Assembly (NCBI GenBank): GCA_049304035.1
Contig: JBAQNR010000007.1
Span: forward strand, 4,548 to 68,547
Length of the DNA: 64,000 nucleotides
Source of the DNA: Microgenomates group bacterium
GTDB taxonomy: Bacteria; Patescibacteriota; Microgenomatia; UBA1406; GWC2-37-13
Direction: 5' to 3'
Shown: positions 466 to 25,229 of the stretch, one piece after another
Layout: the number at the start of each line of letters is the position of its first letter
Numbering within the stretch: position 1 is the first letter of the stretch
Made by a program: the position numbers and the translations under genes
Notes under the pieces: generated by a model
Seen by the model: only the letters and a program-made list of their open reading frames with translations
Told to the model about the DNA's origin: nothing
Databases searched by the model: none

Positions 466-523
466 TTTATAATAGTTGGCGCATGACCGTACTGGAAAAA
501 TTCCAATACGGATAGAACAACTA
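466..523 (-). promoter_or_regulatory. stem-loop plus TCATG flank (degenerate member of PeSL-like family)
   Basis: arms 487-495/503-511 (one G.U on minus RNA); followed on the minus strand by TCATG and TATTAT box. Confidence 0.4.
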
Positions 524-547
524 TTGATAAAAGATAGATTTTATTCA
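524..547. repeat. AT-palindrome family copy (TGAATAAAA-N-TTTTATCAA)
   Basis: ttgataaaagatagattttattca; contains stop codon of 545-820 ORF. Confidence 0.6.
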
Positions 548-820
548 GGAAGTTCGGACGAATTCTTCAAATAATTCTATTGCCGCATCATTTGTCAAAG
601 TTTCCTCGTTTCCATATTTCTCGAAGTCTCCAACAAAACTCGCACTGGTTGGATAAAAACTCGGTCTTCCCTCTTCCAGTCCGACTATTTCACAAGCAAT
701 ATCGTATTGATTTGTTTTTCCATTGTTCCTGTGGGACATGGTATAAAATGCTTCATATACAAATCCACCATAAATACTTCTTCGATGAATTCCATTGAAC
801 TCAATTTCAATTTTTTCCAT
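545..820 (-). CDS. hypothetical protein (91 aa)
   Basis: track ORF trimmed to ATG 820 with GGAGGGAG SD. Confidence 0.6.
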   Translation of the reverse strand: MEKIEIEFNGIHRRSIYGGFVYEAFYTMSHRNNGKTNQYDIACEIVGLEEGRPSFYPTSASFVGDFEKYGNEETLTNDAAIELFEEFVRTS

Positions 821-1040
821 TTTGTTCTCCCTCCGATAATCCATCATCGAATTCAATGGTGTTGTCATCTGTAAACGTAAAGGTAATTGATTTTTCTCCT
901 TTCTTTTGTGCTTGACGAATTGCGTCTGCGATTTTACAGGGATTTTCTAATCCAGAAGACTCAACGTTCAATGCGCCAACTCGAACCATGCTCAATACCT
1001 CTATCCACGTGGGTTCTAAATTGATATATTTTGTTTCCAT
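807..1040 (-). CDS. hypothetical protein (77 aa)
   Basis: track ORF; GAGGAGAA SD upstream; 14-nt overlap with next gene. Confidence 0.6.
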   Translation of the reverse strand: METKYINLEPTWIEVLSMVRVGALNVESSGLENPCKIADAIRQAQKKGEKSITFTFTDDNTIEFDDGLSEGEQNGKN

Positions 1041-1052
1041 ATAATTCTCCTC

Positions 1053-1208
1053 TTAGTATAACACAGAAATACCAAAGTTATTGTTCCACAAAGAAAATCC
1101 TATAAGTGTTACCATTCTTTGCTTTCTGTTTATTGTAAAGAATTCCATTTCAAAAGCGGAAACGTGTTCTAAATCTTCAAAATAATATCCACCAAAGTTT
1201 TTTATCAT
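1053..1208 (-). CDS. small hypothetical protein (51 aa)
   Basis: ATG overlaps stop of upstream gene (TAATG); fills a gap in the array; below track cutoff. Confidence 0.4.
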   Translation of the reverse strand: MIKNFGGYYFEDLEHVSAFEMEFFTINRKQRMVTLIGFSLWNNNFGISVLY

Positions 1209-1417
1209 TATTCTCCTTTGACTAAAATTCCACCATTATCAAAAACAATGGTTGCAAAACAAAAAGGGCATGAGTGATATAGAGTGTCACCTATTGCATC
1301 ATTCACGTCCTCCCACTCGTCCGATAAAGCCCCACTACTGTTCAAGAGTTGATTTTGAAAATAAGCCGAAACACAAATAACATATTCGAGGCGCGAATCA
1401 CAGTGAGGACAATTCAT
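1208..1417 (-). CDS. zinc-ribbon protein (69 aa)
   Basis: CPHC ... CPFC pairs; GGAGAAAA SD. Confidence 0.6.
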   Translation of the reverse strand: MNCPHCDSRLEYVICVSAYFQNQLLNSSGALSDEWEDVNDAIGDTLYHSCPFCFATIVFDNGGILVKGE

Positions 1418-1418
1418 T

Positions 1419-1622
1419 TTATTTTTCTCCTTTATATTTTGGTAATTCTATCCAGATGCACCGAAATGGAACCATATATCCTATCTTATTCTTTTCTTCC
1501 TCTGTAAAAATGGTGGCAGAACCTAATTCAACATATCCAAAGTCTGCCTCCCAAAATCCATAACATTCTTCTTCCCAATACATATTATTCTTTGATTCTT
1601 CGGGATTGAATAAAACATACAT
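1419..1622 (-). CDS. hypothetical protein (67 aa)
   Basis: track ORF; GAGGAG SD. Confidence 0.6.
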   Translation of the reverse strand: MYVLFNPEESKNNMYWEEECYGFWEADFGYVELGSATIFTEEEKNKIGYMVPFRCIWIELPKYKGEK

Positions 1623-1623
1623 T

Positions 1624-1818
1624 TTATTGACACTCCTCTGTCGTCAAAATTCTGATGTCCTTCATGCAATTTGTACAACTCAATATTATTTTTGTTGGAG
1701 TTATAGTTGTGTTGGATAGCGTTCCCACGCATTCTGCTCCGCAATGAGGACAATCAAAGTTCATCCAAAAATTAATTTCTTTTGATTTGAAGATTTTAAA
1801 CTCTTCTTCTTTTTTCAT
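1624..1818 (-). CDS. zinc-ribbon protein (64 aa)
   Basis: CPHC ... CTNC; GAGGAG SD. Confidence 0.6.
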   Translation of the reverse strand: MKKEEEFKIFKSKEINFWMNFDCPHCGAECVGTLSNTTITPTKIILSCTNCMKDIRILTTEECQ

Positions 1819-1821
1819 TAT

Positions 1822-2037
1822 CTACTCCTCATAACTATCTACGGTTTGACAACATGGGAACAATTTAACTTCTGAAACCACCATGTTTTGATTTTTACAA
1901 ATATCAAAATAATGTTTTCTTGCTTTCTTTTCTGCCTCCTCTCTTGACGTTGCGTGAATACCTCTCAACTCATAGTGTTGTCGAAAAAATCCCTTCTTGC
2001 TTTTTAGTTCCACACGTGCATCATAGAATTCCAACAT
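1822..2037 (-). CDS. hypothetical protein (71 aa)
   Basis: track ORF; AAGGAGAAAA SD. Confidence 0.65.
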   Translation of the reverse strand: MLEFYDARVELKSKKGFFRQHYELRGIHATSREEAEKKARKHYFDICKNQNMVVSEVKLFPCCQTVDSYEE

Positions 2038-2069
2038 AATTTTTCTCCTTTCTAAATGGTTGTTGTTGA

Positions 2070-2130
2070 TATAATCTTACCATGATTGCCTAGTAAAGTC
2101 AAGTTTACTAGGCAAATAAGCAGATTATAT
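2070..2130 (-). promoter_or_regulatory. PeSL-like class I: stem-loop with -35 in loop plus extended -10 promoter
   Basis: minus strand TTGACT (2102-2097), 17 nt, TGgTAAGAT (-10 at 2079-2074); perfect 10-bp arms 2088-2097/2104-2113 flank the -35; outer TATAATCT/AGATTATA inverted flanks. Confidence 0.7.
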
Positions 2131-2151
2131 TGATAAAATTGTTCTTTTATC
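2131..2151. repeat. AT-palindrome family copy
   Basis: gataaaa-ttgttc-ttttatc, 7-bp perfect arms; holds stop of 2147-2389. Confidence 0.6.
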
Positions 2152-2389
2152 TATTCTTATCGATAACGTCTAGAATTTCATCCAATAGCGCATCTTCCGA
2201 CACGTTCAAAGCATCACAAATTTCTCCAACTTCCAACGGGTCTTCAAAGTGATATTCTGAGTTGAAAATATCCCATTGTTTTTCAACAACAATAACTTCT
2301 TTATAACTTTCCCCGAATTCAATATCAATTCGATAAGAACGCTCAATGATTGGCTCCCAACAATTTCCTAGTGAAATATTGTATTCCAT
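2147..2389 (-). CDS. hypothetical protein (80 aa)
   Basis: track ORF; GAGGAGAAGG SD. Confidence 0.6.
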   Translation of the reverse strand: MEYNISLGNCWEPIIERSYRIDIEFGESYKEVIVVEKQWDIFNSEYHFEDPLEVGEICDALNVSEDALLDEILDVIDKNR

Positions 2390-2390
2390 A

Positions 2391-2618
2391 TCAACCTTCT
2401 CCTCGATTATAGTTTTCCAGCATATTTTCCAATTTGAGTACGGCTCTCAAATCGGCATTATAAGATTCTAATCCAATAACAAGAGCGTCACAAGCAAACC
2501 ATTCATCATTTTTATCATCCCAAATCGGAGCATTATCAAAACGAGCCATACAAGTATCATCTGCAACAGAAAATTTTCCAGTATCGTGATTATAAACAAC
2601 TACGAAATGTGATTCCAT
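2391..2618 (-). CDS. hypothetical protein (75 aa)
   Basis: track ORF; GGAGAATAA SD. Confidence 0.6.
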   Translation of the reverse strand: MESHFVVVYNHDTGKFSVADDTCMARFDNAPIWDDKNDEWFACDALVIGLESYNADLRAVLKLENMLENYNRGEG

Positions 2619-2621
2619 TTT

Positions 2622-3134
2622 TTATTCTCCTTTATAAATCAAATATTCAGGCAAAGTATAGCACATAAAATCACCATCTGTTCCAATTGAAACGCCCCAA
2701 GGCGCACATGGACTACATGGTGTTCCACGAGTTGTAAATTTACTCCACAATACAACAACATCATTTTGACTATCGATTTTCGCCGCGAATTCTCCTTCTT
2801 CATCTGGAATATACAATCCTTCATCATCTTTTTTCCAGTCACCAATTAGTTTTGTATGTTCAAAACAATCCCATTCGCCGTTTTCAATATCCTCAATTTC
2901 ATCCATCCAATCATCAATCATATCTGGGCTTGGATTTTCTTTACGCCCTTCAAGTTCGATTTGTTGTGAGATTAATTCCACCTCCTGCCCATTGCATTCA
3001 ATAATTTCCTCGCAATCTAAACAAATTTCTTCTCCCCCAGACAAATATTCATAATTTAACTTATTGAAAGATATGACTCCGGGACTGGGAATTTCTGAAT
3101 CAAGCCATTTTCCGTAATTATTTTTGACAGTCAT
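2622..3134 (-). CDS. hypothetical protein (170 aa)
   Basis: track ORF trimmed to ATG 3134 with AAAGGAGAA SD. Confidence 0.65.
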   Translation of the reverse strand: MTVKNNYGKWLDSEIPSPGVISFNKLNYEYLSGGEEICLDCEEIIECNGQEVELISQQIELEGRKENPSPDMIDDWMDEIEDIENGEWDCFEHTKLIGDWKKDDEGLYIPDEEGEFAAKIDSQNDVVVLWSKFTTRGTPCSPCAPWGVSIGTDGDFMCYTLPEYLIYKGE

Positions 3135-3136
3135 TT

Positions 3137-3553
3137 TTATTCTCCTTTGATATTGTTTTCTAAATCTCGAATATTTACACGACACATATAAATTTCTTCA
3201 TCGTCCCATTTGCCACGACATTTAAATTGAATATCCCCATCTTTTTCAACAAGCACAGTGTAACATTCCAGATATTCTTGTTCCTCTAATTCTTCGTTAA
3301 ACTCTCCGTCAACCCATTCAATTTCTTCTTGTAAATTATCCTCAATCCATTCGTTATAAGCAATCCAAATTCCACCGCCAAAATAATATTTTGCGCTGAT
3401 AAAATCCGCGTCATATATTGCGGAAACATCAGATATATGATGCTTCAACTCATTGATTACTTCTCGTGTGATTTCCAAAACAAAACGACTTGGGGAATAT
3501 TCCTCTCCCCTATCTTCATTATTATAATATGCCTTTGCGACTAAATATGTCAT
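3137..3553 (-). CDS. hypothetical acidic protein (138 aa)
   Basis: track ORF; GGAGAT SD. Confidence 0.65.
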   Translation of the reverse strand: MTYLVAKAYYNNEDRGEEYSPSRFVLEITREVINELKHHISDVSAIYDADFISAKYYFGGGIWIAYNEWIEDNLQEEIEWVDGEFNEELEEQEYLECYTVLVEKDGDIQFKCRGKWDDEEIYMCRVNIRDLENNIKGE

Positions 3554-3816
3554 TCAGAATCTCCTTTTGAACCATATTGTTCTTCCATCAATTTATTGAA
3601 AGCATCAAAAATCATTCCATAAATCATTCCGCTTTCAATTGTCATAACATCAATAAAATGTTCCAGCGCTTTCAAATGATTGGAACCGGTTGAAGAAGAT
3701 TTAATCCATCCAAAATCTTCGTCTAAACACTTCTTCATCTCTCTTTTTGCAATTTCCAAATTGGGCTCATGATATGCTTTCATAAAATCTTTGCGTACTT
3801 CACTTACGGTTTTCAT
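3550..3816 (-). CDS. hypothetical protein (88 aa)
   Basis: track ORF; GGAGAAAA SD; ATGA overlap with next gene. Confidence 0.65.
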   Translation of the reverse strand: MKTVSEVRKDFMKAYHEPNLEIAKREMKKCLDEDFGWIKSSSTGSNHLKALEHFIDVMTIESGMIYGMIFDAFNKLMEEQYGSKGDSE

Positions 3817-4021
3817 TTATTTTCTCCTTATATTCTTCGTATTCTGTCTCAGAGTACATCAGTTGATAAACCGGCGTACCAAAAGCATTTTCAAACCAGT
3901 GCCATATCTCATATTTATTTGTTCCTATTTCAAAATGAAGAAACCGTATCTCTATACATTCATCGTCGTCAATGGGAACATCACCAAGAACATTCCACAA
4001 ATCCTTCACAGTAAAAATCAT
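3800..4021 (-). CDS. hypothetical protein (73 aa)
   Basis: track ORF trimmed to ATG 4021 with AAAGGAGAA SD. Confidence 0.6.
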   Translation of the reverse strand: MIFTVKDLWNVLGDVPIDDDECIEIRFLHFEIGTNKYEIWHWFENAFGTPVYQLMYSETEYEEYKEKINENRK

Positions 4022-4022
4022 C

Positions 4023-4187: not shown

Positions 4188-4229
4188 TTTTCCTCCAAAA
4201 ATGTGAATAAAATCTCAGTTTTATCAATA

Positions 4230-4505: not shown

Positions 4506-4530
4506 TTTATTTTTTCTCCTTTTTATGATT

Positions 4531-4588
4531 ATAATCTTACCACGAATATCCACAATCGTCAAATTGTGGATACATAAGAAGATTATAT
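4531..4588 (-). promoter_or_regulatory. PeSL-like class I: stem-loop with -35 in loop plus extended -10 promoter
   Basis: minus strand TTGACG (4562-4557), 17 nt, TGgTAAGAT (-10 at 4539-4534); 9-bp arms 4548-4556/4563-4571. Confidence 0.7.
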
Positions 4589-5586
4589 CAGTCTATCCAA
4601 AATGTGTGGCAATGGGGACAATGCGTTCCACATGGAAACTCATTCAGATAATACGTATTTCTGTGTCTCCGCATATCCATATCCATTGGAGTACACCCAC
4701 CTTTTTCAAATGTTTCCTTATATCTTTTTTCTCTTGCTAATTCTTCCGCATAAGATTCATTTACCTTTGCCTTTTTTGCTGACGTTTTCTTTTTTCTAAA
4801 AGAAATTCCCGTTCCATCACACCAGTTTGTGGACATTCCACAAACTTCATACGTGTATGAATACTTCACTTCCTTATCGATAAAAAAGTTCTTAATCTCA
4901 AACGGAATTGCAAACTTATGCCCAACCAACTGGCAATTGTCACCCGCCCCATTCCAAGTGTCAATAATTGCAATATTTGGATTTGTAAATTCAACAACAT
5001 TCTTATCAGACAAATGCATCATCTCATTAATGTCACCGGTAAAATAAATCACCAATCTTCCGTTGTCACCTTGACGAATCATCATGTCAATGTCATTATC
5101 CCATTTTGTTTCTTTCAGCGGGATTTTTAATGCTTTCTTGATTTGTTTGCACATTTTATCAACTTCGTCTTGGTCTGATAAGCATCCGTCATAAAATTCT
5201 TCGCCAGTATCATAAAACATTACAATATCCCTTGTGTTTCTGATTAAATCTTTTATTGGGTCGGACTCGTCCCTATCCATAATAACATCCCGAAGATTTT
5301 CCCAGTGTTCTTCCATTAACTCTTCCGCTTCTTCTTCGGTTATGTCGAATTCTTTTTCAATTTCGTCCTTCAATTCTTTTGCAATAAAATCTAAACTATC
5401 GCATTGACATTCCCAAAACCAATCATCGCAATTTTGGTCAATATGACACCAGTCTTGTGTTCTTATTGCTTCCGCGACACTTTCCAGACTATCATCTAAA
5501 TTGCTTCGATAATCAACATAAATCAAATCATAAGACTTATTCAACAATTTTTCAATATCTTCGTAAGTAATTTCCTTAGTTTCCAT
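4588..5586 (-). CDS. hypothetical protein (332 aa), C-terminal CxxC/HCxHC cluster
   Basis: track ORF trimmed to ATG 5586 with AAAGGAGAT SD; no family recognised. Confidence 0.7.
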   Translation of the reverse strand: METKEITYEDIEKLLNKSYDLIYVDYRSNLDDSLESVAEAIRTQDWCHIDQNCDDWFWECQCDSLDFIAKELKDEIEKEFDITEEEAEELMEEHWENLRDVIMDRDESDPIKDLIRNTRDIVMFYDTGEEFYDGCLSDQDEVDKMCKQIKKALKIPLKETKWDNDIDMMIRQGDNGRLVIYFTGDINEMMHLSDKNVVEFTNPNIAIIDTWNGAGDNCQLVGHKFAIPFEIKNFFIDKEVKYSYTYEVCGMSTNWCDGTGISFRKKKTSAKKAKVNESYAEELAREKRYKETFEKGGCTPMDMDMRRHRNTYYLNEFPCGTHCPHCHTFWID

Positions 5587-6000: not shown

Positions 6001-6014
6001 GTTATCTCCTTTTG

Positions 6015-6070
6015 ATTATAATTCATAATACCATGATTGTACAGGAGATTCTCCTGTACAAATAAGACTA
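6015..6070 (-). promoter_or_regulatory. PeSL-like class II: palindromic stem-loop plus extended -10 promoter
   Basis: 25-bp near-perfect palindrome 6037-6061; on the minus strand followed by TCA-TGgTATTAT (-10 at 6030-6025). Confidence 0.6.
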
Positions 6071-6093
6071 TGAATAAAATCGTACTTTTATCA
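6071..6093. repeat. AT-palindrome family copy
   Basis: tgaataaaatcgtacttttatca. Confidence 0.6.
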
Positions 6094-6094
6094 A

Positions 6095-6595
6095 TTATCG
6101 CGCCCAGTATTCCACCCCGTCAAAATCCCCAGATGTATAATCTTGTTGCAATTCTTCTGCCGCTTCTTTCCAGTCTATGCAATTCAACGGCCAACCCTCA
6201 CTTCCATCTATTGTTCCAATATCATTTGCCAATTCTTTTGCATATTCAACAAAATAAGAATCCCTAATCAGAGTTGTTCCATGATTCCAGTCTGGACAAT
6301 ATCCTTCAAATTCATCTTGAAAATCCCTCAGTGATTTCAATTCGATTGCTTCATCCGAGTCTTCCCAGTCTGTTTCCAATTTCTCAATTTGACTTCTTAA
6401 TTCACGAATCTCCTCATCTAACTCATCTATTTTATCTTCAGAATCTTCTCTCGTCAATTCCAAATCTTCAATCTCGTCCTCTAAATCCTGGACTTTATCT
6501 TCAAAAATATCCTCATCGCTTTCTAATTCCTCAATTCGTTCAATAATATCACGACTGTCTAAAATATCTTCTGAATTATCAATATTCCTTCGCAT
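6095..6595 (-). CDS. acidic protein, ArdA-like C-terminal domain (candidate anti-restriction DNA mimic)
   Basis: N-terminal D/E-rich coiled segment; C-terminus DSYFVEYAKE...NCIDWKEAAEELQQDYTSGDFDG resembles my recollection of the Tn916 ArdA tail (DMYDVARYYIEE...NYIDYQAYGRDLDLSG). Confidence 0.4.
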   Translation of the reverse strand: MRRNIDNSEDILDSRDIIERIEELESDEDIFEDKVQDLEDEIEDLELTREDSEDKIDELDEEIRELRSQIEKLETDWEDSDEAIELKSLRDFQDEFEGYCPDWNHGTTLIRDSYFVEYAKELANDIGTIDGSEGWPLNCIDWKEAAEELQQDYTSGDFDGVEYWAR

Positions 6596-7304: not shown

Positions 7305-7328
7305 TGAATAAAAGCGTCATTTTATTTA
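7305..7328. repeat. AT-palindrome family copy
   Basis: tgaataaaagcgtcattttattta; loop similar to copies at 7751 and 7941. Confidence 0.6.
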
Positions 7329-7735
7329 GAAATATCGACAAGTGCTTTCTGATACTTTTTAATTAGTTGTGTCTTGTTTCCGAGAATACTTTCTTTTAGG
7401 TTACAAATTATGTCGCATATCTTTATAACTTTCGCAACGCTGTGTCTGGAAACTCTTGATATATATTCATCATAAGTTTCTGTTTCATAATGGGTTAGCG
7501 CATGAACATTGTCTCCAACAAAATTCCCAAAATAGTGGCTGATTTCAGCCCATCCCGTTTCTGTGTCCTCAACAACATCGTGCAATATTGCTATAATTTG
7601 ATAATATTCATCATATCCCAATTCTGAAACAAGATTTGAAACTTGTTCAAGATGATAAAAATACGGTTTATTTCCATACATTTGTTTTCCGTGTTTGTTT
7701 TTTGCGAAATATTTTGCCTCATCGAGTAATTTCAT
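7322..7735 (-). CDS. HD-domain phosphohydrolase, SpoT/RelA-hydrolase-like (small alarmone hydrolase candidate)
   Basis: KHGKQMYGNKPYFYHLEQV ... IAILHDVVEDT matches the (p)ppGpp hydrolase HD signature; 137 aa single domain. Confidence 0.7.
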   Translation of the reverse strand: MKLLDEAKYFAKNKHGKQMYGNKPYFYHLEQVSNLVSELGYDEYYQIIAILHDVVEDTETGWAEISHYFGNFVGDNVHALTHYETETYDEYISRVSRHSVAKVIKICDIICNLKESILGNKTQLIKKYQKALVDISK

Positions 7736-7964: not shown

Positions 7965-8062
7965 TTCTCTTTGAATTCAGACCTATTCTTGGGCTCAAAA
8001 ATATCATCCCTGACCAGTCCTTTCCTGAAAAGAAAATCAATTATAAAAGACCATAGTTTCAT
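7958..8062 (-). CDS. 34-aa ORF translationally coupled to the radical SAM gene
   Basis: ATGA overlap with radical SAM stop (8062-8059); MKLWSFIIDFLFRKGLVRDDIFEPKNRSEFKENE; no SD of its own. Confidence 0.35.
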   Translation of the reverse strand: MKLWSFIIDFLFRKGLVRDDIFEPKNRSEFKENE

Positions 8063-9030
8063 TTTCTTTTTTCCTCCACCATATTATTATAATCCACGAG
8101 ACAATCTAAACAATTTTGTTTGCAAATTGGGTCGAGATGGGTATCGTGATTTTCACTCCAAATTTTTCTTTGTTCCAACATATTTTCATCAACTCTACCA
8201 ATTGGTTCGCCGCCCTCTCTCATGTGAATAACGCAAGGAAAATGCCAACTTCCGGCGACAACCGAATCATCTACAACCAAGTGACATTTTCTTGTATCAT
8301 TATCAGAAATTCCCCTAACATTTTTTCCAGATAGAAGATTTTTAACTCGATATTTCAAAATCGGATGTGCTTCTAAAATATAATCTGGAATTAATTCCAA
8401 CTTTGATAATGCACCATTGTATTGTGCCGCAGTAATAATCCGAATATCCGAAACTCCCAAATCGTGTGCGAATTTTACCACATCAACAACGGTTGATTGT
8501 GTTTCGTCCGTTAAAACAATTCCAACTGTTACATATGTTTCTTTTGAAAGCCATTCGATATTTGACGCAACTCTTTCAAAAATTCCTTTTCTACCACCGG
8601 ACATTTTTTCCGCATCTTCGGCACAACAGGCATCCAAACTAATTGAAAAATCATTTACGCCAGCGTCCAAAAGATTTCGGTACATTTTTTCTGGCATAGA
8701 ACCATTTGAGGAAATCGCAATTCTTTTTATTCCACCTTCTTTTGCAATTTTCACAAACTCAACAACATTTGGGTGCATTGTTGGCTCACCACCAGAGAAA
8801 CGAATGTTTTTCAATCCGCTTGAAATCCAACTATTCAAAACAGATTTCACAATATCTGGATGTAAATGTCCAGAACAATCCCTGCTGTATGCTTTTACTC
8901 CACGACAATATGGACATTTATAGTTGCACATTTCCGTAATAATAATTTCGCAACGTTCCATATTGAAGTGTTCTTTTATTGCTCTTTCGTCTGTCAATGT
9001 ATAAAATCCAATGTTAGATACCGAAGACAT
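8059..9030 (-). CDS. radical SAM enzyme (MoaA/viperin-like core, Cys-rich C-terminus), substrate unknown
   Basis: CNYKCPYC (CxxxCxxC), FSGGEPT, ISSNGS motifs; C-terminal CKQNCLDC; trimmed to ATG 9030 with AAAGGAG SD. Confidence 0.8.
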   Translation of the reverse strand: MSSVSNIGFYTLTDERAIKEHFNMERCEIIITEMCNYKCPYCRGVKAYSRDCSGHLHPDIVKSVLNSWISSGLKNIRFSGGEPTMHPNVVEFVKIAKEGGIKRIAISSNGSMPEKMYRNLLDAGVNDFSISLDACCAEDAEKMSGGRKGIFERVASNIEWLSKETYVTVGIVLTDETQSTVVDVVKFAHDLGVSDIRIITAAQYNGALSKLELIPDYILEAHPILKYRVKNLLSGKNVRGISDNDTRKCHLVVDDSVVAGSWHFPCVIHMREGGEPIGRVDENMLEQRKIWSENHDTHLDPICKQNCLDCLVDYNNMVEEKRK

Positions 9031-9292: not shown

Positions 9293-9310
9293 TGAATTCT
9301 CCTGTTTCAT

Positions 9311-9365
9311 TTATAATTCCATGATTGCACATAAAAATTCTCTTATGTGCAAATAGGACTATAAA
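9311..9365 (-). promoter_or_regulatory. PeSL-like class II stem-loop plus TGn -10-like box
   Basis: 10-bp perfect arms 9325-9334/9343-9352; on the minus strand followed by TCATGGAATTATAAA. Confidence 0.55.
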
Positions 9366-9656
9366 CTATTCTGGATGAAAGTCCGACATTGACATATCCA
9401 GAGTAAATCTTCCATCATATTCCATATTTAAAAATTTAGACACATTTTCTGGAAAATCATCGGTATGTAAGTTCACATGTTTTTTATTTTCTTCTTTATA
9501 ATATATCGCACCCCACCCTCCTCCCACTTGCATGTGAATTTTATTTTTTTGAAAATATGGTTTTACATATTCCTCAAAAACATCGTTGGCAATATCTTCA
9601 ATTTTCTGAAGATAATTATCTCTTGCGTTTTCTATTTCCAATTCTATGTCTCTCAT
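9366..9656 (-). CDS. hypothetical protein (96 aa)
   Basis: track ORF; GAGGAAAA SD. Confidence 0.6.
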   Translation of the reverse strand: MRDIELEIENARDNYLQKIEDIANDVFEEYVKPYFQKNKIHMQVGGGWGAIYYKEENKKHVNLHTDDFPENVSKFLNMEYDGRFTLDMSMSDFHPE

Positions 9657-11631: not shown

Positions 11632-11652
11632 ATTTTCTCCTTTTGTTTAATT

Positions 11653-11717
11653 ATATAATAATCTTACCATAAAAGCCAATAACCGTCAAGTTATTGGCTC
11701 ATAAGCAGATTATACTA
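11653..11717 (-). promoter_or_regulatory. PeSL-like class I: stem-loop with -35 in loop plus extended -10 promoter
   Basis: minus strand TTGACG (11689-11684), 17 nt, TGgTAAGAT (-10 at 11666-11661); 10-bp arms 11674-11683/11690-11699, followed by TTTTA on the minus strand. Confidence 0.7.
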
Positions 11718-13184: not shown

Positions 13185-13198
13185 ATTTTCTCCTTTAT

Positions 13199-13260
13199 AT
13201 ATAATATGGCTCATGACTATCCACGAAAGAAATTTCGTGAATAGATAGAGAATATTATAA
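13199..13260 (-). promoter_or_regulatory. PeSL-like class II stem-loop with TCATG flank
   Basis: 12-bp arms 13217-13228/13233-13244 (one G.U on minus RNA); upstream TATAAT-ATTCTCTAT flank on the minus strand. Confidence 0.5.
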
Positions 13261-13905
13261 TTCCATCTTAATTTGGCAACCACACGAACCGAATCTGTCG
13301 TCATATTCATAGTCACGCCAAGAATCATCGTGTTCTTCATTGTATTTTTTACAGGTTTTACAAATCTTCAAATGAATTACTCGGTCATATAATGCAGTAA
13401 AATCTTTTTCTTGCGGAATAGATTCCATTAAATTTGTATCTTGGCAAAACCAATAGTTCATCTGGTCGAATTGTTCATCGGTTAAATCTTCCTCAATATC
13501 GAAATCTCGTCCCGCCAAGTATCTTAATTCATAATCCACCGACTTATATTGTGCCTCAGATTCTCTTTGTGAAAAATCATTATCATCATAAACGGGATAA
13601 TTATCGTGCAGTTGATGATAAATTTCGTCACAAATTTTAAGATTTTCATAATCTGATTCGTGAATATAAATCGTATCTACCCACCCCACCGCCCAGTGGG
13701 AGGCGCGTTCAACTAAAATTCCTTTTTTATTATCCCAATCAAATCCTTCTGGATAATCACGTAAAAAAGATTCCCAATTGGATTCCTCGAGAATATCAGA
13801 ATCTCGAGTTATTGACATAAAAACATAAAATTCCTCAAAAGTATCCCCAAGATAACTATCGGGATATTTCCACTTGTGCATATATTGTGGCTCATATTTT
13901 TCCAT
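13255..13905 (-). CDS. hypothetical protein (216 aa), C-terminal Cys cluster
   Basis: track ORF; AAGGAGAATTAG SD. Confidence 0.65.
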   Translation of the reverse strand: MEKYEPQYMHKWKYPDSYLGDTFEEFYVFMSITRDSDILEESNWESFLRDYPEGFDWDNKKGILVERASHWAVGWVDTIYIHESDYENLKICDEIYHQLHDNYPVYDDNDFSQRESEAQYKSVDYELRYLAGRDFDIEEDLTDEQFDQMNYWFCQDTNLMESIPQEKDFTALYDRVIHLKICKTCKKYNEEHDDSWRDYEYDDRFGSCGCQIKMEL

Positions 13906-14184: not shown

Positions 14185-14221
14185 TGAAAACAGTAGACAT
14201 TTATTCCCCAAATATCTACTG
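14185..14221 (-). terminator. rho-independent terminator (minus strand)
   Basis: 12-bp stem 14191-14202/14210-14221 (one G.U on minus RNA), followed by UUUUC on the minus strand; downstream of 14235-14588. Confidence 0.65.
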
Positions 14222-16644: not shown

Positions 16645-16655
16645 TTTTTCTCCTT

Positions 16656-16727
16656 TGATATAATTTTGACTTATATTTATACTCAAAACAACTTTGAGTA
16701 TAAATATAAATCCCCCTTCTTTAACTT
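16656..16727 (-). promoter_or_regulatory. class III element: GGGGGAT plus 16-bp AT-rich stem-loop plus AGTCAAAAT
   Basis: perfect arms 16672-16687/16693-16708; atccccc at 16710-16716; same flanks as the 22355 copy. Confidence 0.55.
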
Positions 16728-18799: not shown

Positions 18800-18877
18800 G
18801 TGATTATGAAAATTAAATATATCATGATTGTACAGAATTCTCCCCATTATTGATTCTGTACAAATTGATTATTTAAC
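18800..18877 (-). promoter_or_regulatory. PeSL-like class II stem-loop plus extended -10 promoter
   Basis: 11-bp perfect arms 18828-18838/18853-18863; on the minus strand followed by TCA-TGaTATATT; paralogous to the 20226 copy (shared TTTAATTTTCATAA). Confidence 0.55.
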
Positions 18878-18900
18878 TTGATAAAATGGTTGTTTTATTC
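18878..18900. repeat. AT-palindrome family copy
   Basis: ttgataaaatggttgttttattc. Confidence 0.6.
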
Positions 18901-20877: not shown

Positions 20878-20879
20878 TA

Positions 20880-21083: not shown

Positions 21084-21101
21084 GTTAACTCTCCTCATCC
21101 A

Positions 21102-21125
21102 TTGATAAAATGGATATTTTATTTA
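21102..21125. repeat. AT-palindrome family copy
   Basis: ttgataaaatggatattttattta. Confidence 0.6.
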
Positions 21126-21712: not shown

Positions 21713-21723
21713 GATTTTTCTCC

Positions 21724-21891
21724 TTAGAAAACTAATTCAACTTCATCCCAAGTGAAATATCCTACGCCAACCTTGAGTTCCACTTTAATAACTTCCTGCT
21801 CCAAAAAAAGACGAGCGGGAAAAGTTTCCACAATTGTTCCAATTTGCCCATGATTATAACATTCTTTCAAGATTTTTACTTTTTGTAACAT
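21724..21891 (-). CDS. small hypothetical protein (55 aa)
   Basis: track ORF trimmed to ATG 21891 with AAAGGAGAAAA SD. Confidence 0.5.
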   Translation of the reverse strand: MLQKVKILKECYNHGQIGTIVETFPARLFLEQEVIKVELKVGVGYFTWDEVELVF

Positions 21892-22343
21892 TATTTTTCT
21901 CCTTTCAATATATTCCTGATTTTCAACAATCTTGAACAAAATTCTCGTTGAGTTAAAACAGTGTGGCTTTCATCATTTTTTCCCATAGAATGAGTCAATG
22001 ACGAATTTCCAGTTGCCAGCAAAGCATTTTTGAAACTTGAATTTTTTGACAATTCAAAAAATGCCCTGTCTAACAAATCCTGATAATCTTGTGAATGACG
22101 ATTGATTTCTTTTCCCTGCCAAAATAATGTTTGAGTCTTCCACCATTTTTTTGGCTTTCCCTTAAATTTTGCTTGCTTTCCTACTAAAGTGCAAACAAAT
22201 TTTTGCATTTCCACATCCTTAAATTTCAAGGATTGCAGAAATCCTTCCATGGAATTGCATGGAATTCCGTCAATAATGAACGGATGCGGCGCAAAATTTG
22301 AGAGACTCGAAGCAGGAAAACCATTTCCGCTTCCAATATCCAT
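21891..22343 (-). CDS. NADAR (YbiA/DUF1768)-like protein, candidate ADP-ribose-processing enzyme
   Basis: LSNFAPHPFIIDGIPCNSMEGFLQSLKF ... ALLATGNSSLTHS parallels E. coli YbiA FSNFAAWPIKVDGKTWPTSEHYFQAQKF ... LLATAPAKLVEHT (from memory); trimmed to ATG 22343. Confidence 0.6.
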   Translation of the reverse strand: MDIGSGNGFPASSLSNFAPHPFIIDGIPCNSMEGFLQSLKFKDVEMQKFVCTLVGKQAKFKGKPKKWWKTQTLFWQGKEINRHSQDYQDLLDRAFFELSKNSSFKNALLATGNSSLTHSMGKNDESHTVLTQREFCSRLLKIRNILKGEK

Positions 22344-22354
22344 TTTTTTCTCCT

Positions 22355-22425
22355 TTTGGTTATATTTTGACTTATAAATATCCACAAACGAATTTGCGAA
22401 TATTTATAAATCCCCCTGAATAAAA
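22355..22425 (-). promoter_or_regulatory. class III element: GGGGGAT plus 17-bp AT-rich stem-loop plus AGTCAAAAT
   Basis: arms 22372-22388/22393-22409 with two non-WC positions, both G.U on minus RNA; atccccc at 22410-22416. Confidence 0.55.
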
Positions 22426-22662
22426 CTATATATTAAGAAATCTAAAGATTAATTCCGCGTCCCATTTTTCAACCTCTATTGTTAAATCCTTGGTTGTCTT
22501 TTCACAGGCATCGCAGAAAAGATAATGGGAATTCGTTGATAAAACTTCATCCCATAAATGTTTTCCATCACAGCAATTTCTTTTTTTCCAATATTCTAAT
22601 TCTTTTTCCGTCCACTCCCTTTCTCCATCTATTTGGTAACTTTTTCCGAGATAAGAGTCCAT
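22426..22662 (-). CDS. hypothetical Cys-containing protein (78 aa)
   Basis: track ORF trimmed to ATG 22662 with GGAGGAAAA SD. Confidence 0.6.
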   Translation of the reverse strand: MDSYLGKSYQIDGEREWTEKELEYWKKRNCCDGKHLWDEVLSTNSHYLFCDACEKTTKDLTIEVEKWDAELIFRFLNI

Positions 22663-22676
22663 TTTTCCTCCAAGTG

Positions 22677-22700
22677 TTGATAAAACGAAGATTTTATACA
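22677..22700. repeat. AT-palindrome family copy
   Basis: ttgataaaacgaagattttataca. Confidence 0.6.
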
Positions 22701-22869
22701 GAATATGCACTATGCCAAATCATTTTCGCAAAAGAAATTTTCCTCGGAAAATTTGGGTCATCATAAAATTCCTCGGAAAAGGTTACGAATGGAAGTTGTG
22801 AAAACCAAGGGGTTTCATGTCCAATTGAAATCGAAAAATTTCTTTCCTTGAACTTGAATTTTATCTCCA
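22693..22869 (-). CDS. small hypothetical protein (58 aa)
   Basis: ATG 22869 with AAGGAAAAAAC SD-like; below track cutoff. Confidence 0.4.
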
Positions 22870-22882
22870 TAATGTTTTTTCC

Positions 22883-23050
22883 TTATGCGTCAATCGATTC
22901 GATTTCACAGTTTTCCCTGCGGATTAATTCCCTTTCAATTTCCCGTAGGTTATACGGAATATATGACAATGAGATTCTGTCATCATCGTAGCACAAAATT
23001 TCCTCCATCCATTTTACCAGTTGTTTTTTATCTTCCAGTTCTAATTCCAT
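22883..23050 (-). CDS. small hypothetical protein (55 aa)
   Basis: ATG 23050 with GGAGAAATAAAA SD; below track cutoff. Confidence 0.45.
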   Translation of the reverse strand: MELELEDKKQLVKWMEEILCYDDDRISLSYIPYNLREIERELIRRENCEIESIDA

Positions 23051-23052
23051 TT

Positions 23053-23199
23053 TTATTTCTCCTTTTCAATTTCTGATATTTCCACAGTTATCCTGTGGAT
23101 TTTTCCCATATATTTAAAAGTGATAACATTACCTTCAATATTGGGACGCGCAAAACGAAATATATCCCTGATTCTCGACAGTATCATAATTATGTCCAT
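23053..23199 (-). CDS. small hypothetical protein (48 aa)
   Basis: track ORF trimmed to ATG 23199 with AGGAGAAGAT SD. Confidence 0.45.
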   Translation of the reverse strand: MDIIMILSRIRDIFRFARPNIEGNVITFKYMGKIHRITVEISEIEKEK

Positions 23200-23230
23200 A
23201 TCTTCTCCTAATTTGAAAATTGACAAAAGC

Positions 23231-23272
23231 CTGCCGATAATATTTCCCCGTAAATTCATCAATTATCGGCAG
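23231..23272 (-). promoter_or_regulatory. 11-bp perfect inverted repeat just downstream of promoter (operator or 5' UTR hairpin)
   Basis: ctgccgataat (23231-23241) / attatcggcag (23262-23272), 20-nt loop. Confidence 0.5.
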
Positions 23273-23283
23273 ATATTTCGTTA

Positions 23284-23312
23284 ATTTTACAACTTATTTG
23301 TTATTTTGTCAA
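23284..23312 (-). promoter_or_regulatory. sigma70/sigmaA-type promoter (minus strand)
   Basis: TTGACA (23312-23307), 17 nt, TAAAAT (23289-23284). Confidence 0.6.
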
Positions 23313-23313
23313 G

Positions 23314-23520
23314 TTAATTTTCAATCAGTCCATTATCAAAAAGGATTTGTTCCATCTTGATTTTCAAAAATTCCTCATGGCGTTTTTCACCAAGAGATTT
23401 TCCAGGATTCCACTGAACATATCCCTTTTTACTTGCGCCATGCTTTGTTGTGATTCTTTTTCCCTTCTTTTTGTTATTCTTGCTGTTATTTCCATCAAAA
23501 GATTTATTTGTTGTTTGCAT
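23314..23520 (-). CDS. basic Lys/Asn-rich protein (68 aa)
   Basis: track ORF; AAGGAGAAAATC SD. Confidence 0.6.
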   Translation of the reverse strand: MQTTNKSFDGNNSKNNKKKGKRITTKHGASKKGYVQWNPGKSLGEKRHEEFLKIKMEQILFDNGLIEN

Positions 23521-23531
23521 GATTTTCTCCT

Positions 23532-23732
23532 TTAAGAAAATTTTACCAAAATAATTCCGTCAAAAATATCAGAATAAACAACGGGAAATCCATTGTTATT
23601 CAAATATTCCAGAACGGACGAATCGGTTGTAGAAAGTGTGAACAGAGTCCACCAACCATTTGAAATTACGGTGAATTCTTCCACGTGATTCGGTTTTTCC
23701 GCAAGCCAAATCTTCATGTCTTCAACTTTCAT
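23532..23732 (-). CDS. hypothetical protein (66 aa)
   Basis: track ORF trimmed to ATG 23732 with AGGAGAAAAAATC SD. Confidence 0.55.
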   Translation of the reverse strand: MKVEDMKIWLAEKPNHVEEFTVISNGWWTLFTLSTTDSSVLEYLNNNGFPVVYSDIFDGIILVKFS

Positions 23733-23743
23733 GATTTTTTCTC

Positions 23744-23938
23744 CTATTGCTGACAAATTTCCAAAATATCTTCTTGCGGAATAATTCCAGTTTCCGCAAG
23801 ATTTGCGACACAATCCGCCTCGAAATCTGATGGTTGGATTTTCGAAATTGAATCCACCATAAAAAATATGGCGATTGTAAGAGCCAATAGAATGACGGTT
23901 TTATTTCTGTTTTTCATGAGTAAATTTGTAAAATCCAT
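23744..23938 (-). CDS. small protein with N-terminal signal/TM segment (64 aa)
   Basis: track ORF trimmed to ATG 23938; weak SD; start uncertain. Confidence 0.4.
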   Translation of the reverse strand: MDFTNLLMKNRNKTVILLALTIAIFFMVDSISKIQPSDFEADCVANLAETGIIPQEDILEICQQ

Positions 23939-24047
23939 AATCTTCCATTTCTGCGTTGTCCAGCATAGCAATTGTCACGAATTGCCGCCTTTAATTCGAT
24001 TTGAAATTCCATATAGTTATCAAACTCGTATTCAATCATTTTTGACA
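23913..24047 (-). CDS. small hypothetical protein (44 aa)
   Basis: ATG 24047 with AAGGAGAAAAA SD; below track cutoff. Confidence 0.4.
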
Positions 24048-24145
24048 TTTTTTCTCCTTATGGATATAATGATGCTAAAACCCAAATTACAAAACACAAA
24101 ACAACTCCGACCTTTTGCCACATTGGAATTCTTTTAGATGCCATA

Positions 24146-24340
24146 TTATTGCCCAAGATTTCTTTTCAAAGATTCAATTTGAGACTCTACATACATGAGC
24201 CTTGATGGTTTAGGAACAAAATATATAAACCCATTCCTTTTATTTGCCTCAAGACTTTCTTCATGCATCTTTTTCAGAGTCTCAAACTCTTTTTCAAACT
24301 TTGAGAGAATTTCTTCTCTCTTTTGCTTTTTTGTTTTCAT
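24146..24340 (-). CDS. hypothetical coiled-coil protein (64 aa)
   Basis: track ORF; TGGAGAAAAAC SD. Confidence 0.6.
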   Translation of the reverse strand: MKTKKQKREEILSKFEKEFETLKKMHEESLEANKRNGFIYFVPKPSRLMYVESQIESLKRNLGQ

Positions 24341-24374
24341 AGTTTTTCTCCATTTGAATTTATTTTTGAAACAG

Positions 24375-24454
24375 TGGCAATGGGGAGATTCGAACTCCGC
24401 AATTCTTCCTTTCGGCGATTTCCCAGAATCATTTGGAAATTGTGCGCCATTGCC
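24375..24454 (-). ncRNA. tRNA-like element (canonical acceptor stem and T-arm, non-canonical D/anticodon region)
   Basis: minus strand GGCAATG...CGGAGTTCGAATCTCCC-CATTGCC-A: perfect 7-bp (extendable to 9-bp) acceptor stem and GTTCGAATC T-loop; the middle folds as one long arm (ATTTCCAA/TGGGAAAT, loop AUGAUUC) plus CCGAAAGG hairpin; no cloverleaf found by hand. Confidence 0.45.
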
Positions 24455-24459
24455 ATTTA

Positions 24460-24777
24460 TTAATTTATTCTCATTTCAAACATTTGGATAAAATCAATCT
24501 CTAAATTTTGCACGTATTCAAATCCAATTTTCTCATAACTTTTCCGCGCAGGAATATTTTCCTTTGCAACATACAAGGTATATTTTCCAGGAAATTCCTG
24601 TAAAAATTCCATCAACATTTTTACACAATATCCATTTCCCCGATACTTTTTGAAAATCTTCACGCTCCAAATTTCATCTTTGATAATCGCAAATGTTCCC
24701 ACAAATTTTCCATCATCAGAAAAATATACAAATTTTTCCTCATCAGGATAATGCTGGATTGCTTTTGGAATAATCAT
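24460..24777 (-). CDS. GNAT-family N-acetyltransferase (minimal, 105 aa)
   Basis: KKYRGNGYCVKMLMEF (acetyl-CoA R-x-x-G-x-G motif) and NIPARKSYEKIGF. Confidence 0.65.
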   Translation of the reverse strand: MIIPKAIQHYPDEEKFVYFSDDGKFVGTFAIIKDEIWSVKIFKKYRGNGYCVKMLMEFLQEFPGKYTLYVAKENIPARKSYEKIGFEYVQNLEIDFIQMFEMRIN

Positions 24778-24855
24778 AATATTTCTCCATACAAATTTAA
24801 TCTTTCAAAGTTTATCCTGAATTCCTCATAAAAATTCAGGATATAATTTGAAGTA

Positions 24856-25152
24856 TTAAACCGGTTCGGGATGGTAATTGTCCCACTCTTCCATATTCCC
24901 ATCCAACCACTTAAAATAATCGTAGTAAGAGGGCATTTCGGAAATTTCCGCAGGGTAACACTCACTCATCTCCTCATCCGAATAGTATTCCATGCGGGAA
25001 TAAAATTCGTTGCAGAATTCCGACGATTTGTTGAATCTCTGCAAGTGTATTCGTTCTACAAAATTTCTGCGATTCTGTCGCCAAATTTCGTAGAATTTTT
25101 CCTTGCGTTCCGCTTTCCTTTCCTCTTTTTTGAGGCGTTCACGTTCATTCAT
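24856..25152 (-). CDS. hypothetical protein (98 aa)
   Basis: track ORF; AAGGAGAAAAAAC SD. Confidence 0.6.
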   Translation of the reverse strand: MNERERLKKEERKAERKEKFYEIWRQNRRNFVERIHLQRFNKSSEFCNEFYSRMEYYSDEEMSECYPAEISEMPSYYDYFKWLDGNMEEWDNYHPEPV

Positions 25153-25162
25153 GTTTTTTCTC

Positions 25163-25229
25163 CTTATACAAATTTATTAGACTAATCAGAATCTACAAAT
25201 GATTTTGCAAATTCTGATTAATCCCCCTA
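25163..25229 (-). promoter_or_regulatory. class III element: GGGGGAT plus 17-bp stem-loop
   Basis: arms 25183-25199/25204-25220 with two non-WC positions, both G.U on minus RNA; atccccc at 25221-25227. Confidence 0.55.

Follow-up and report, generated by a model that had tools for sequence, protein, structure and literature searches.

Two new families of conserved RNA hairpins between early genes of a large uncultured phage: probable cut or protection marks on long early mRNA

What keeps hairpins in place between the early genes of a phage when their stems differ from copy to copy? We asked this of a window of 64,000 nucleotides (the whole stretch of DNA analyzed). Its source contig is labelled as a Microgenomates MAG. 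The 12 early-gene hairpins of this large uncultured phage fall into two families of conserved RNA structures, both new (Table 1), and are most likely cut or protection marks on long early mRNA. A first-pass annotation had read them as PeSL-like cassettes that terminate and restart transcription, an overall interpretation that is partly supported by our analysis.

All 12 hairpins reported by that annotation are present, each on the sense (minus) strand of a leftward gene array. Folding of the minus-strand RNA gave energies of -19.2 to -25.7 kcal/mol (z -4.35 to -8.55), with none of 200 shuffles folding as well as the real element, and the plus-strand fold was the weaker one in 12/12 cases. Stems of at least 10 bp numbered 55 on the minus and 45 on the plus strand, compared with ~14 and ~11, respectively, in block shuffles. 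The elements occupy 12 of the 19 intergenic gaps of at least 60 nt, so the claim of a hairpin in every larger gap was overstated, and 12 of the 88 gene junctions (~1 in 7). An element starts at the stop codon of the upstream gene or within a few tens of bases of it, and ends 5-25 nt ahead of the next ribosome-binding site.

Table 1. Hairpin elements and related features of the leftward array (scores in bits; MFE in kcal/mol).
Position	Strand	Feature	Model score	Folding	Remarks
464..528	-	Family A, class II (first annotated as 466-523)	R1 59.1, E 1e-10	MFE -21.4, z -5.75	Upper helix 11 bp, lower helix 8 bp
2066..2132	-	Family A, class I, putative embedded sigma-A promoter	R1 64	MFE -25.7, z -7.09	-35 TTGACT 2102-2097 in apical loop; TGgTAAGAT, -10 box 2079-2074, in lower 3' arm; 12 bp / 3x4 loop / 3 bp / bulge / 9 bp
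4523..4590	-	Family A, class I, putative embedded promoter	R1 67.4		-35 TTGACG 4562-4557; -10 TAAGAT 4539-4534; abuts stop codon of F5, a conserved 332-aa gene
6014..6078	-	Family A, class II	R1 64.6		Lies 3' of F4 (6095-6595), a conserved gene; orthologues by position L004 3686-3755 and L006 8155-8225, stems differing in both
9305..9369	-	Family A, class II	R1 65.1	MFE -21.5, z -6.47	
11650..11717	-	Family A, class I, putative embedded promoter	R1 71.2		-35 TTGACG 11689-11684; -10 TAAGAT 11666-11661
13193..13262	-	Family A, class II	R1 56.5	MFE -21.3, z -6.39	5' arm of lower helix contains stop codon of gene 13255-13905
14191..14221	-	Intrinsic terminator (contrast case)			13-bp stem, then UUUU; only clear one inside array
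16653..16722	-	Family B, class III	R2 66.3 sense, 33.8 antisense	MFE -22.4, z -7.73	AGGGG, then continuous 20-21 bp helix, GAUU...AGUC
18805..18880	-	Family A, class II	R1 66.8	MFE -19.2, z -4.35	GAGAAU within long apical loop
20226..20298	-	Family A, class II	R1 59	MFE -20.5, z -5.74	
22360..22422	-	Family B, class III	R2 70.7 sense, 23.2 antisense		20 bp helix, 3 G.U
23211..23289	-	Weak family A-like leader hairpin	R1 31.8, E 3e-4		12-bp stem UAUCUGCC..GGCAGG, then UUUUGUC; directly downstream of array's best free-standing sigma-A promoter (TTGACA-17-TAAAAT, 23312-23284)
25163..25233	-	Family B, class III	R2 82.8	MFE -25.4, z -8.55	21 bp helix, 4 G.U

Family A unites classes I and II of the first-pass annotation (9 copies in the window) and consists of a variable upper helix of 10-13 bp (mode 12), an asymmetric 3x4 internal loop (5'-YUAU / 3'-RUCAUG) that is conserved and present in most copies, and a lower helix of ~11 bp, for a total paired length of 19-26 bp (mostly 21-26). 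The pattern of conserved flanks around variable stems is real, but in classes I and II the flanks pair with each other as the lower helix. Family B (class III, 3 copies in the window) has AGGGG followed by a continuous helix (GAUU...AGUC) of 20-21 bp rather than the 16-17 bp first assigned to it. The single-stranded letters UAU / UCAUGG of family A are constant over 5 phages while both helices vary, AGGGG-GAU...GUC is invariant across family B, and GAGAAU recurs in apical regions (six copies, three phages).

Both folds are supported by covariation. For family A (21 distinct copies, 5 phages), 94.4% of cells pair, and sliding the 3' partners lowers this to 33-44%; 19/21 pairs show double changes, and G.U exceeds A.C by 41 to 4. 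The five family B copies keep 20/20 pairs, of which 15 show double changes and one is always U.G. The main-stem imperfections are G.U on the minus strand, as had been noticed, and are more numerous than in the original list: 4546-4573 (x2), 11673-11700 (x2), 16668-16712 (x2), 22369-22412 (x3) and 25179-25224 (x4). Covariance models built for families A (R1) and B (R2) score 56-83 bits on the sense strand and 17-34 bits on the antisense strand. The covariation and the 41:4 asymmetry support selection on the fold of the sense strand, not on a site in duplex DNA, in agreement with the earlier argument. Single-stranded DNA tolerates G.T wobble too, and the strand bias is therefore not strict proof of a function at the RNA level.

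The models detected the two families in six related phages from metagenomes, and in nothing else that was searched. The elements all lie in the early array, with no copy of either family in the late region (28-64 kb) even with filters off, and neither family is present in the rightward arm. Their spacing is regular (1.4-3.5 kb, CV 0.30; P ~2e-4 for an equally regular random pick of 12 of the 88 junctions). Families A and B alternate within this one series, and the slot after gene F5 holds one or the other depending on the phage, which argues for a single, structure-based function. In gene-order maps the elements coincide with synteny breaks in the relatives, beside blocks of unrelated genes, in support of that part of the first-pass annotation; F4 and F5 are each retained together with their family A element while the genes downstream differ, which suits an element belonging to the 3' end. 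Copies in orthologous slots of the relatives either lack a -35 box or are family B hairpins, so that the shared function appears structural and not promoter-based.

That last result bears directly on the PeSL-like reading, in which upstream transcription would be stopped and restarted from a promoter in each element, the conserved parts serving as recombination points for gene shuffling. Evidence for it includes class I, in which the loop, as first described, holds TTGAC(T/G), with TGgTAAGAT following after exactly 17 nt (2102-2074, 4562-4534 and 11689-11661); the pattern ATAATCTNCTTAT-N24-36-TGGTAAGATTAT was observed 3 times with 0.00 expected, and a sigma-A promoter in these three copies is credible from their sequence. 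About half of the family A copies also have a -10-like NAnnnT in register after TG, the elements lie at synteny breaks, and the regular spacing could mirror transcription units. A full sigma-A promoter is, however, found only in class I (3/12 window elements; 3 of ~23 family A members), and no family B member has a -35 box. The distance between GAGAAT and TCATG is variable, so GAGAAT is not a fixed -35 box, and a compensatory change in the relative L003 (TAAGAT to TAAGAC) preserves the helix at the expense of the -10 box. Promoter scans of the array exceed shuffles slightly at most (75 vs 68 expected in one half, 98 vs 75 in the other). None of the 12 elements has the U-tract that is present at the clear intrinsic terminators of the window, so they are not intrinsic terminators. 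As PeSL anatomy differs as well (PMC4122927), we consider this reading improbable. The elements may nonetheless act as recombination hot spots, as the first-pass annotation suggested.

Two further explanations dispense with cleavage. The elements may be mRNA binding sites for a specific phage or host protein (e.g., an exonuclease barrier, a translational or antitermination regulator, or a ribosome standby site), recognized by the internal loop, the apical GAGAAU and the AGGGG leader. The loop letters kept between changing helices, the recurrence of GAGAAU, the invariant letters of family B and the link of the elements to the 3' ends of conserved genes agree with this. Families with different conserved letters nevertheless exchange in one slot and share one spacing series, which favors a reader of helix geometry, and an RNA-binding or nuclease domain was recognized in 0/84 early proteins; we regard such sites as rather unlikely. 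Alternatively, the hairpins could form in single-stranded DNA, as attC-like recombination sites bounding cassettes or to signal priming on the template of the lagging strand. A design in which the ends are conserved and the centre varies, a strand-specific fold, synteny breaks adjoining unrelated gene blocks, a spacing (~2.2 kb) near Okazaki fragment length, and a GC skew matching the sense strand as lagging-strand template speak for this. The reading is highly improbable, however, given that the 84 early proteins yielded no integrase, Y1 transposase or other recombinase, that only 12/88 junctions have an element, that direct reading of the sequence shows no attC R'/R'' core sequences, and that the rightward arm, equally in need of priming signals, contains neither family.

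We favor the reading that the elements are RNase III-type processing signals that also protect 3' ends, with a promoter superimposed on some copies (probability about 0.5); 'process' was already among the roles proposed in the first-pass annotation. The leftward early array would be transcribed as long polycistronic RNAs, in which a double-strand-specific endonuclease, the best candidate being host RNase III, would recognize a hairpin every ~2 kb. Family A would receive a single cut, 3' of its internal loop, and family B a cut in both strands. The message upstream would thereby keep a protective hairpin at its 3' end, and the one downstream would begin with a short leader. Class I copies also spell a sigma-A promoter in their apical loop and 3' arm, so that new transcripts would begin just past the hairpin. 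Elements of both families provide about two turns of double-stranded RNA, which is typical of RNase III substrates (PMC1540722). Internal loops restrict cleavage by this enzyme to one strand, leaving a protective 3' hairpin (PMC1540722), and targets in phage SP82 have internal loops and a single cut on the downstream side (PMC1935012). The presence of RNase III in the host is an assumption. Generic RNase III has no need of sequence-specific recognition, yet this is what the conserved loop letters (YUAU / UCAUGG) and the AGGGG leader suggest; the reader of the elements could instead be a phage or host RNA-binding protein. The restriction of the elements to 12/88 gene junctions also counts against processing.

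Several known systems share parts of this design. Integron attC sites likewise fold on one strand, pairing at the base, open in the middle and variable at the top, and they too follow genes that are arrayed in one direction; the present elements differ in having no integrase, no conserved core sites and a place at only ~1/7 of junctions. REP/BIME palindromes are also intergenic, at gene 3' ends, and possible exonuclease barriers, but REP copies have a common palindrome sequence whereas the stems described here differ wholly and only their architecture is conserved. PeSLs, defined as short stem-loops immediately upstream of a sigma-70-like promoter (PMC4122927), are, like our elements, repeated between small, variable early genes, there of T4-like phages, and associated with gene content that differs between relatives (PMC4122927), and class I resembles them in combining a hairpin with a sigma-70-type promoter. 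Membership in this group is nevertheless not borne out: the PeSL stem-loop is short, GC-based and upstream of its promoter, while here the promoter, if any, is enclosed in a two-tier, AT-rich hairpin of 21-26 bp, and most copies have none.

The Bs-RNase III sites of SP82 and SPO1, phages of a Gram-positive host, lie in a host-takeover module and resemble our elements in occupying early-gene arrays of low-GC phages. The early intergenic regions of SPO1 contain five copies of GUUGCUAG, a 9-bp stem and NNAUGGAGCC, again with conserved flanks and a variable stem, which we take to be the published RNase III cleavage sites. The SPO1 host-takeover module is reported to contain such sites (PMC3896407). 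AUGG lies directly 3' of the variable stem in both systems, and SP82 sites have internal loops, as does family A, with one cut on the 3' side (PMC1935012). The SPO1 stems, however, are GC-rich, ~9 bp long and different in their lower part, and the SPO1 sites lie downstream of separate promoters; R1 and R2 searches of SPO1 gave no match, and thus no homology to the only Gram-positive precedent.

The early RNase III signals of T7 and T3 (e.g., R1.1) are likewise hairpins that separate cistrons on a polycistronic early mRNA. As in family A, two helices stacked on either side of an asymmetric internal loop add up to about two turns, and the hairpin left at the 3' end is able to protect the upstream message (PMC1540722, PMC1935012); the upper stem-loop of the present elements is about the size of the 28-nt product of the minimal R1.1 substrate. 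The two groups are unrelated in sequence, and in the elements described here cleavage is a prediction, the letters of the internal loop are conserved, three copies have the putative promoter inside the hairpin, and another family, whose helix is perfect, is used interchangeably with the first.

All 12 hairpins proposed in the first-pass annotation are present: as minus-strand RNA they beat their shuffled versions in every case (z -4.35 to -8.55; 0 of 200 shuffles as good), and the minus-strand fold is better than that of the plus-strand copy in 12/12 elements. Stems of at least 10 bp, counted with a purpose-written stem finder and shuffles, are 3-4 times commoner than in block shuffles; a sliding 80-nt MFE scan was unselective, with many coding windows reaching -19 kcal/mol. 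The idea that every larger intergenic gap holds such a hairpin was too broad, as among 19 gaps measuring 60 nt or more only 12 contain an element. Overall, the first-pass observation stands and is extended, and its interpretation finds partial support.

The elements belong to two families. The stems do vary, as first described, but what had been read as conserved flanks in classes I and II are mutually complementary and pair with each other, giving a two-tier hairpin (family A, nine copies in the window). Its apical loop of 3-11 nt caps an upper helix that is most often 12 bp long (range 10-13 bp), followed by an internal loop that is asymmetric and mostly 3x4 (5'-YUAU, 3'-RUCAUG), 2-3 pairs, a bulge of 1-2 nt on the 3' side and a further 8-10 bp, for a helix total of 19-26 bp (mostly 21-26). 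Class III is a different family (family B, three copies), consisting of AGGGG, a continuous helix of 20-21 bp rather than the 16-17 bp stem originally given, and A-rich sequence, with an invariant helix base of G-C, A-U and U.G (GAUU...AGUC). The apical module UUUGAUACnGUGUCAAA sits on otherwise different family B helices in three contigs from related phages (L003 9912-9989; L004 1-57 and 7198-7272; L132 8287-8358, 4090-4161 and 10625-10704), which hints at a family B sub-family or a second recognition element.

Substitution patterns indicate what has been conserved. Among 21 distinct family A copies, in a large alignment fitted to the family A covariance model (R1), 94.4% of cells pair, versus 33-44% when the 3' partners are slid, and double-sided changes occur at 19 of 21 pairs; none of the pairing and covariation measures was reached by any shuffle. 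The nine window copies aligned with MAFFT agree with this (19/22 pairs compensatory), and in family B 100 of 100 cells pair, with double changes at 15/20 pairs. Wobble pairs outnumber A.C mismatches by 41 to 4 in family A, where symmetric selection on duplex DNA or a cruciform predicts roughly 1:1. Judged from these sequence comparisons, it is the sense-strand fold, not a duplex DNA site, that is under selection, which supports the earlier preference for RNA structure.

Covariance-model searches, suggested at first pass, recover both families in related phages, whose contigs were fetched via a 332-aa early protein. R1 finds the nine window copies plus one weak match (23211-23289), one more in the leftward extension provided by contig L001, and 11 clear copies in L003, L004, L006, L007 and L132, with two weak ones (L132 7157, L135 3110). 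R2, the family B model, finds the three window copies, eight clear copies in L003, L004, L007, L132 and L135, and one weak match; a looser family B-like hairpin at L004 7198 was recognized by eye only. With filters off, neither model matched the late region of the window, and neither family was found in three more distant relatives (L008, L009, L010), in the SPO1 host-takeover region (L005) or in the SPbeta-like phage BUCT082, the closest cultured phage by polymerase gene. One of the distant relatives carries an IS200/IS605-type pair, OrfB/TnpB and a Y1 transposase (L009 19596-21005). A scan of IMG/VR for the class I pattern gave 0 matches. Looser flank patterns (CTTAT..TCATGGTAA and GGGGGATT..AGTCAAA) returned at least 120 IMG/VR stretches per scan, and the 80 listed ones, used as negative controls (~1.5 Mb of unrelated viral DNA containing short flank motifs), yielded 0 R1 matches in 793 kb and 0 R2 matches in 683 kb, leaving chance flank matches only. 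Rfam gave no match at gathering scores across the whole window and only chance-level matches (E 0.6-1) in 1-26500. We regard A and B as new families of RNA structure whose functional niche is a known one.

The first 26,300 nt of the window form a leftward array of ~89 small genes (~33% GC), each preceded by a strong AAGGAG ribosome-binding site. Rightward genes from ~30.8 kb encode an 879-aa YonO/RdRP-type polymerase homologue, an exonuclease, terminase, portal and tail proteins. One window protein has an identical counterpart on a 130,778-bp contig that was deposited as a 'Microgenomates' MAG; because the genes on this source contig, which include terminase, portal, tail, lysin and PhoH, are those of a large tailed phage, the bin label 'Microgenomates group bacterium' is probably wrong. 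Promoters and ribosome-binding sites of the source contig look Firmicutes-like. L001, a Logan contig, is 100% identical to the window over the 7.5 kb they have in common and continues the array 4.1 kb past the window's left end. Megablast of window 1-25000 against GenBank phages gave no match, a search of IMG/VR for helicase relatives found none, and an exact-protein look-up returned no identical record for the radical-SAM gene product. Based on its sequence, the 879-aa protein is a YonO-type single-subunit DNA-dependent RNA polymerase heading the rightward late genes (PMC5467207). Related proteins occur in SPbeta-like Bacillus phages, Clostridium phage c-st and Enterocloster phages (best relative BUCT082, 31.6% identity, 99% of query covered); a sequence search of solved structures gave no match. 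Besides the early proteins in the table, a domain scan of 84 early proteins recognized a GNAT acetyltransferase and a DUF7574 protein; the rest of the array consists of small genes without known function.

Features of the window and of the SPO1 host-takeover region (window coordinates unless a contig is named)
Feature	Position	Strand	Remarks
Class I hairpins	2066-2132, 4523-4590, 11650-11717	-	Family A copies with embedded putative sigma-A promoter
HD-domain protein	7322-7735	-	Early array
Radical-SAM protein	8059-9030	-	Early array
T4 gp30.3-like protein	21891-22343	-	E 1e-54; early array
Large two-tier palindrome	26321-26400	both	~-32 kcal/mol either strand
Bidirectional terminator, 16 bp	26776-26811	both	In non-coding region 26293-28824
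Further palindromes	27724-27817		In non-coding region 26293-28824
RdRP (PF05183) protein, 879 aa	33617-36256	+	Pfam E 6.8e-16, above cut-off
Junction palindrome	28 sites in 527-25711; 32579, 37594, 44442, 47394, 50144, 51855		
SPO1 repeats	L005 7114-7211, 11777-11851, 12194-12272, 12381-12526, 12698-12793		

The strand and GC skew switch in a mostly non-coding, AT-rich region (26293-28824) with one 163-aa ORF (26834-27325) and perhaps some small ones around 28.0-28.4 kb; this may be a control or replication region. The minus-strand gap at 24341-24459 contains a tRNA-like piece, in which GGAGTTCGAATCTCC resembles a T-arm and GGCAATGG pairs with CCATTGCC much as in an acceptor stem; neither ARAGORN nor Rfam called a tRNA there, and a tRNA search of the window was negative.

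All 12 elements lie between minus-strand genes. Each starts at the upstream gene's stop codon or a few tens of bases off, with the stop sometimes inside the lower helix, and stops 5-25 nt short of the next Shine-Dalgarno sequence. Families A and B together comprise one regular series, spaced 1.4-3.5 kb apart (CV 0.30), and random picks of 12 of the 88 junctions are as regular with P ~2e-4. Following F4, an early gene conserved among related phages, there is a family A element in the window, L004 and L006, and 2, 5 or 0 unrelated genes, respectively, separate it from F5, the gene for the 332-aa protein. These positional orthologues have entirely different helices and the same internal loop. The slot after F5 likewise holds a family A copy in the window, L007 and L006, and in L135 a family B copy; in L003 and L004 gene F8 comes directly after F5 without an element. 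The gene-order maps thus place elements at synteny breaks, where they remain attached to the conserved upstream gene at its 3' end; A and B are interchangeable, as either may occupy the F5 slot in different phages. Synteny breaks at elements, anticipated by the first-pass annotation, are therefore seen after both F4 and F5, among relatives that share only 39-64% protein identity and in which most genes differ anyway.

Gene junctions also carry the palindrome T(G/A)A-ATAAAA-N6-TTTTAT-YMA, present at 34 window sites versus 0.6 expected, with arms always 6 nt apart. It overlaps or abuts the upstream gene's stop codon in both transcription directions and is often immediately upstream of hairpins; at compact junctions the Shine-Dalgarno sequence of the next gene falls in the spacer and its start codon in TTTTATG. 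L003, L004 and L007 contain none and L006 a single copy. Possible roles for the palindrome are as operator of a dimeric protein, as a weak hairpin in RNA or as a linker at junctions.

The promoter motif described for class I holds up: the flank pattern with TTGAC(T/G) in the loop exactly 17 nt before TGgTAAGAT occurs three times (0.00 expected), and a 5/6 -35 box with a 17-nt spacer, TG and TAAGAT is found only in these copies. Here the two-tier hairpin of 21-26 bp bears the -35 box in its apical loop and the -10 box lower down, in the 3' arm. Since the upper helices are unrelated among the three copies, the common loop TTGAC is under selection, and the simplest explanation from the sequence is that it is part of a sigma-A promoter. 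The predicted start is 1-3 nt past the hairpin, so primary transcripts would lack it. In an L003 copy TAAGAT has become TAAGAC with a compensatory change that keeps the helix. Promoter-like features are weak elsewhere in family A, and the -35 box is absent from family B and most family A members; GAGAAU, in the apical regions of six copies from three phages, lies at a variable distance from UCAUG and is therefore not a -35 box. We rejected a promoter reading for the whole family because of the poor -35/-10 quality outside class I. PeSLs are short stem-loops just upstream of, and separate from, a promoter (PMC4122927). The elements, first read as PeSL-like cassettes, differ in having the -35 and -10 boxes inside the 21-26 bp hairpin and a full promoter in the three class I copies only, and are anatomically not PeSLs.

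A terminator scan of the window returned 0 of the 12 elements, whose 3' tails (AUUAUAUCAAC and similar) have no U-tracts; its best matches (14191, 26776, 28222, 28671) all have one, as clear terminators do, and for want of U-tracts intrinsic (Rho-independent) termination by the elements was rejected. Of the proposal that the elements terminate and re-initiate transcription, re-initiation is backed by the class I promoter motif, but the lack of U-tracts and the weak promoter features elsewhere count against a general role. Amplified mobile repeats of the REP/MITE type were rejected because neither the upper nor the lower helix is shared among copies, and 19/21 pairs have changed in a compensatory way. 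No recognizable sigma, RNase III, integrase, transposase or other recombinase domain was found in the 84 early proteins; lack of a recombinase, together with variable helix bases without a GTTRRRY core, led us to reject integron attC sites. As alternatives to the processing reading given below, the elements may be targets of a specific RNA-binding protein, or may act as single-stranded DNA. It is rather improbable, in our estimate, that they are dual-coded junction modules, combining a sigma-A promoter on DNA (in some copies), a processing hairpin on read-through RNA and swap points for gene blocks bounded by A or B. Cut and newly started messages would then get similar short leaders, and interchangeable A and B elements, every ~2 kb at the 3' ends of conserved genes, would be break-and-join points for early-gene blocks. 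Such modules would be the phage equivalent of integron attC sites or of PeSLs, based on structure rather than sequence.

Because of their anatomy and the analogy with RNase III substrates, we consider the elements most likely to be processing and 3'-end-protecting signals on the early transcript, with cleavage probably of the RNase III type. The hairpins would divide this transcript into units of ~2 kb, and the hairpin left at each 3' end would protect the upstream RNA; on three of them (class I) a promoter would be superimposed. If so, they provide readable punctuation of the early transcript for an uncultured clade of ~130-kb phages with a YonO-type RNA polymerase, and would add two structured RNA motifs, both well supported, that Rfam lacks. 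With a promoter lying in its loop and 3' arm, a processing hairpin would combine DNA- and RNA-level signals in a single sequence, which is unusual. R1 and R2 could help to detect the clade in metagenomes and to mark out early transcription units, and the link with synteny breaks gives a testable handle on the shuffling of small phage gene arrays.

Bacterial RNase III substrates comprise two turns of helix, which may be coaxially stacked; internal loops limit cutting to one strand, and the remaining 3' hairpin protects upstream RNA (PMC1540722). A single cut on the downstream side is made in T7 substrates that have an internal bubble and in SP82 substrates that have internal loops (PMC1935012). 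The B. subtilis enzyme is described as having narrow specificity (PMC4838370), which would fit the conserved loop letters of family A, and the SPO1 host-takeover module is reported to contain RNase III sites (PMC3896407). By analogy, both families match published substrate features: helices of about two turns (19-26 bp in A, 20-21 bp in B) and, in structure only, the asymmetric 3x4 loop that most family A copies have at a distance of 12 bp from the apical loop. As with the T7 R, SP82 and SPO1 sites, all 12 elements are intercistronic in a same-strand early array. They differ from the SPO1 sites in that L005 contains no R1 or R2 match, with only AUGG 3' of the stem in common. Five SPO1 early intergenic regions contain GUUGCUAG, a variable 9-bp stem-loop, then NNAUGGAGCC and GGCUAC. 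These repeats, which are presumably the published RNase III sites, resemble the window elements in having conserved flanks around a variable stem.
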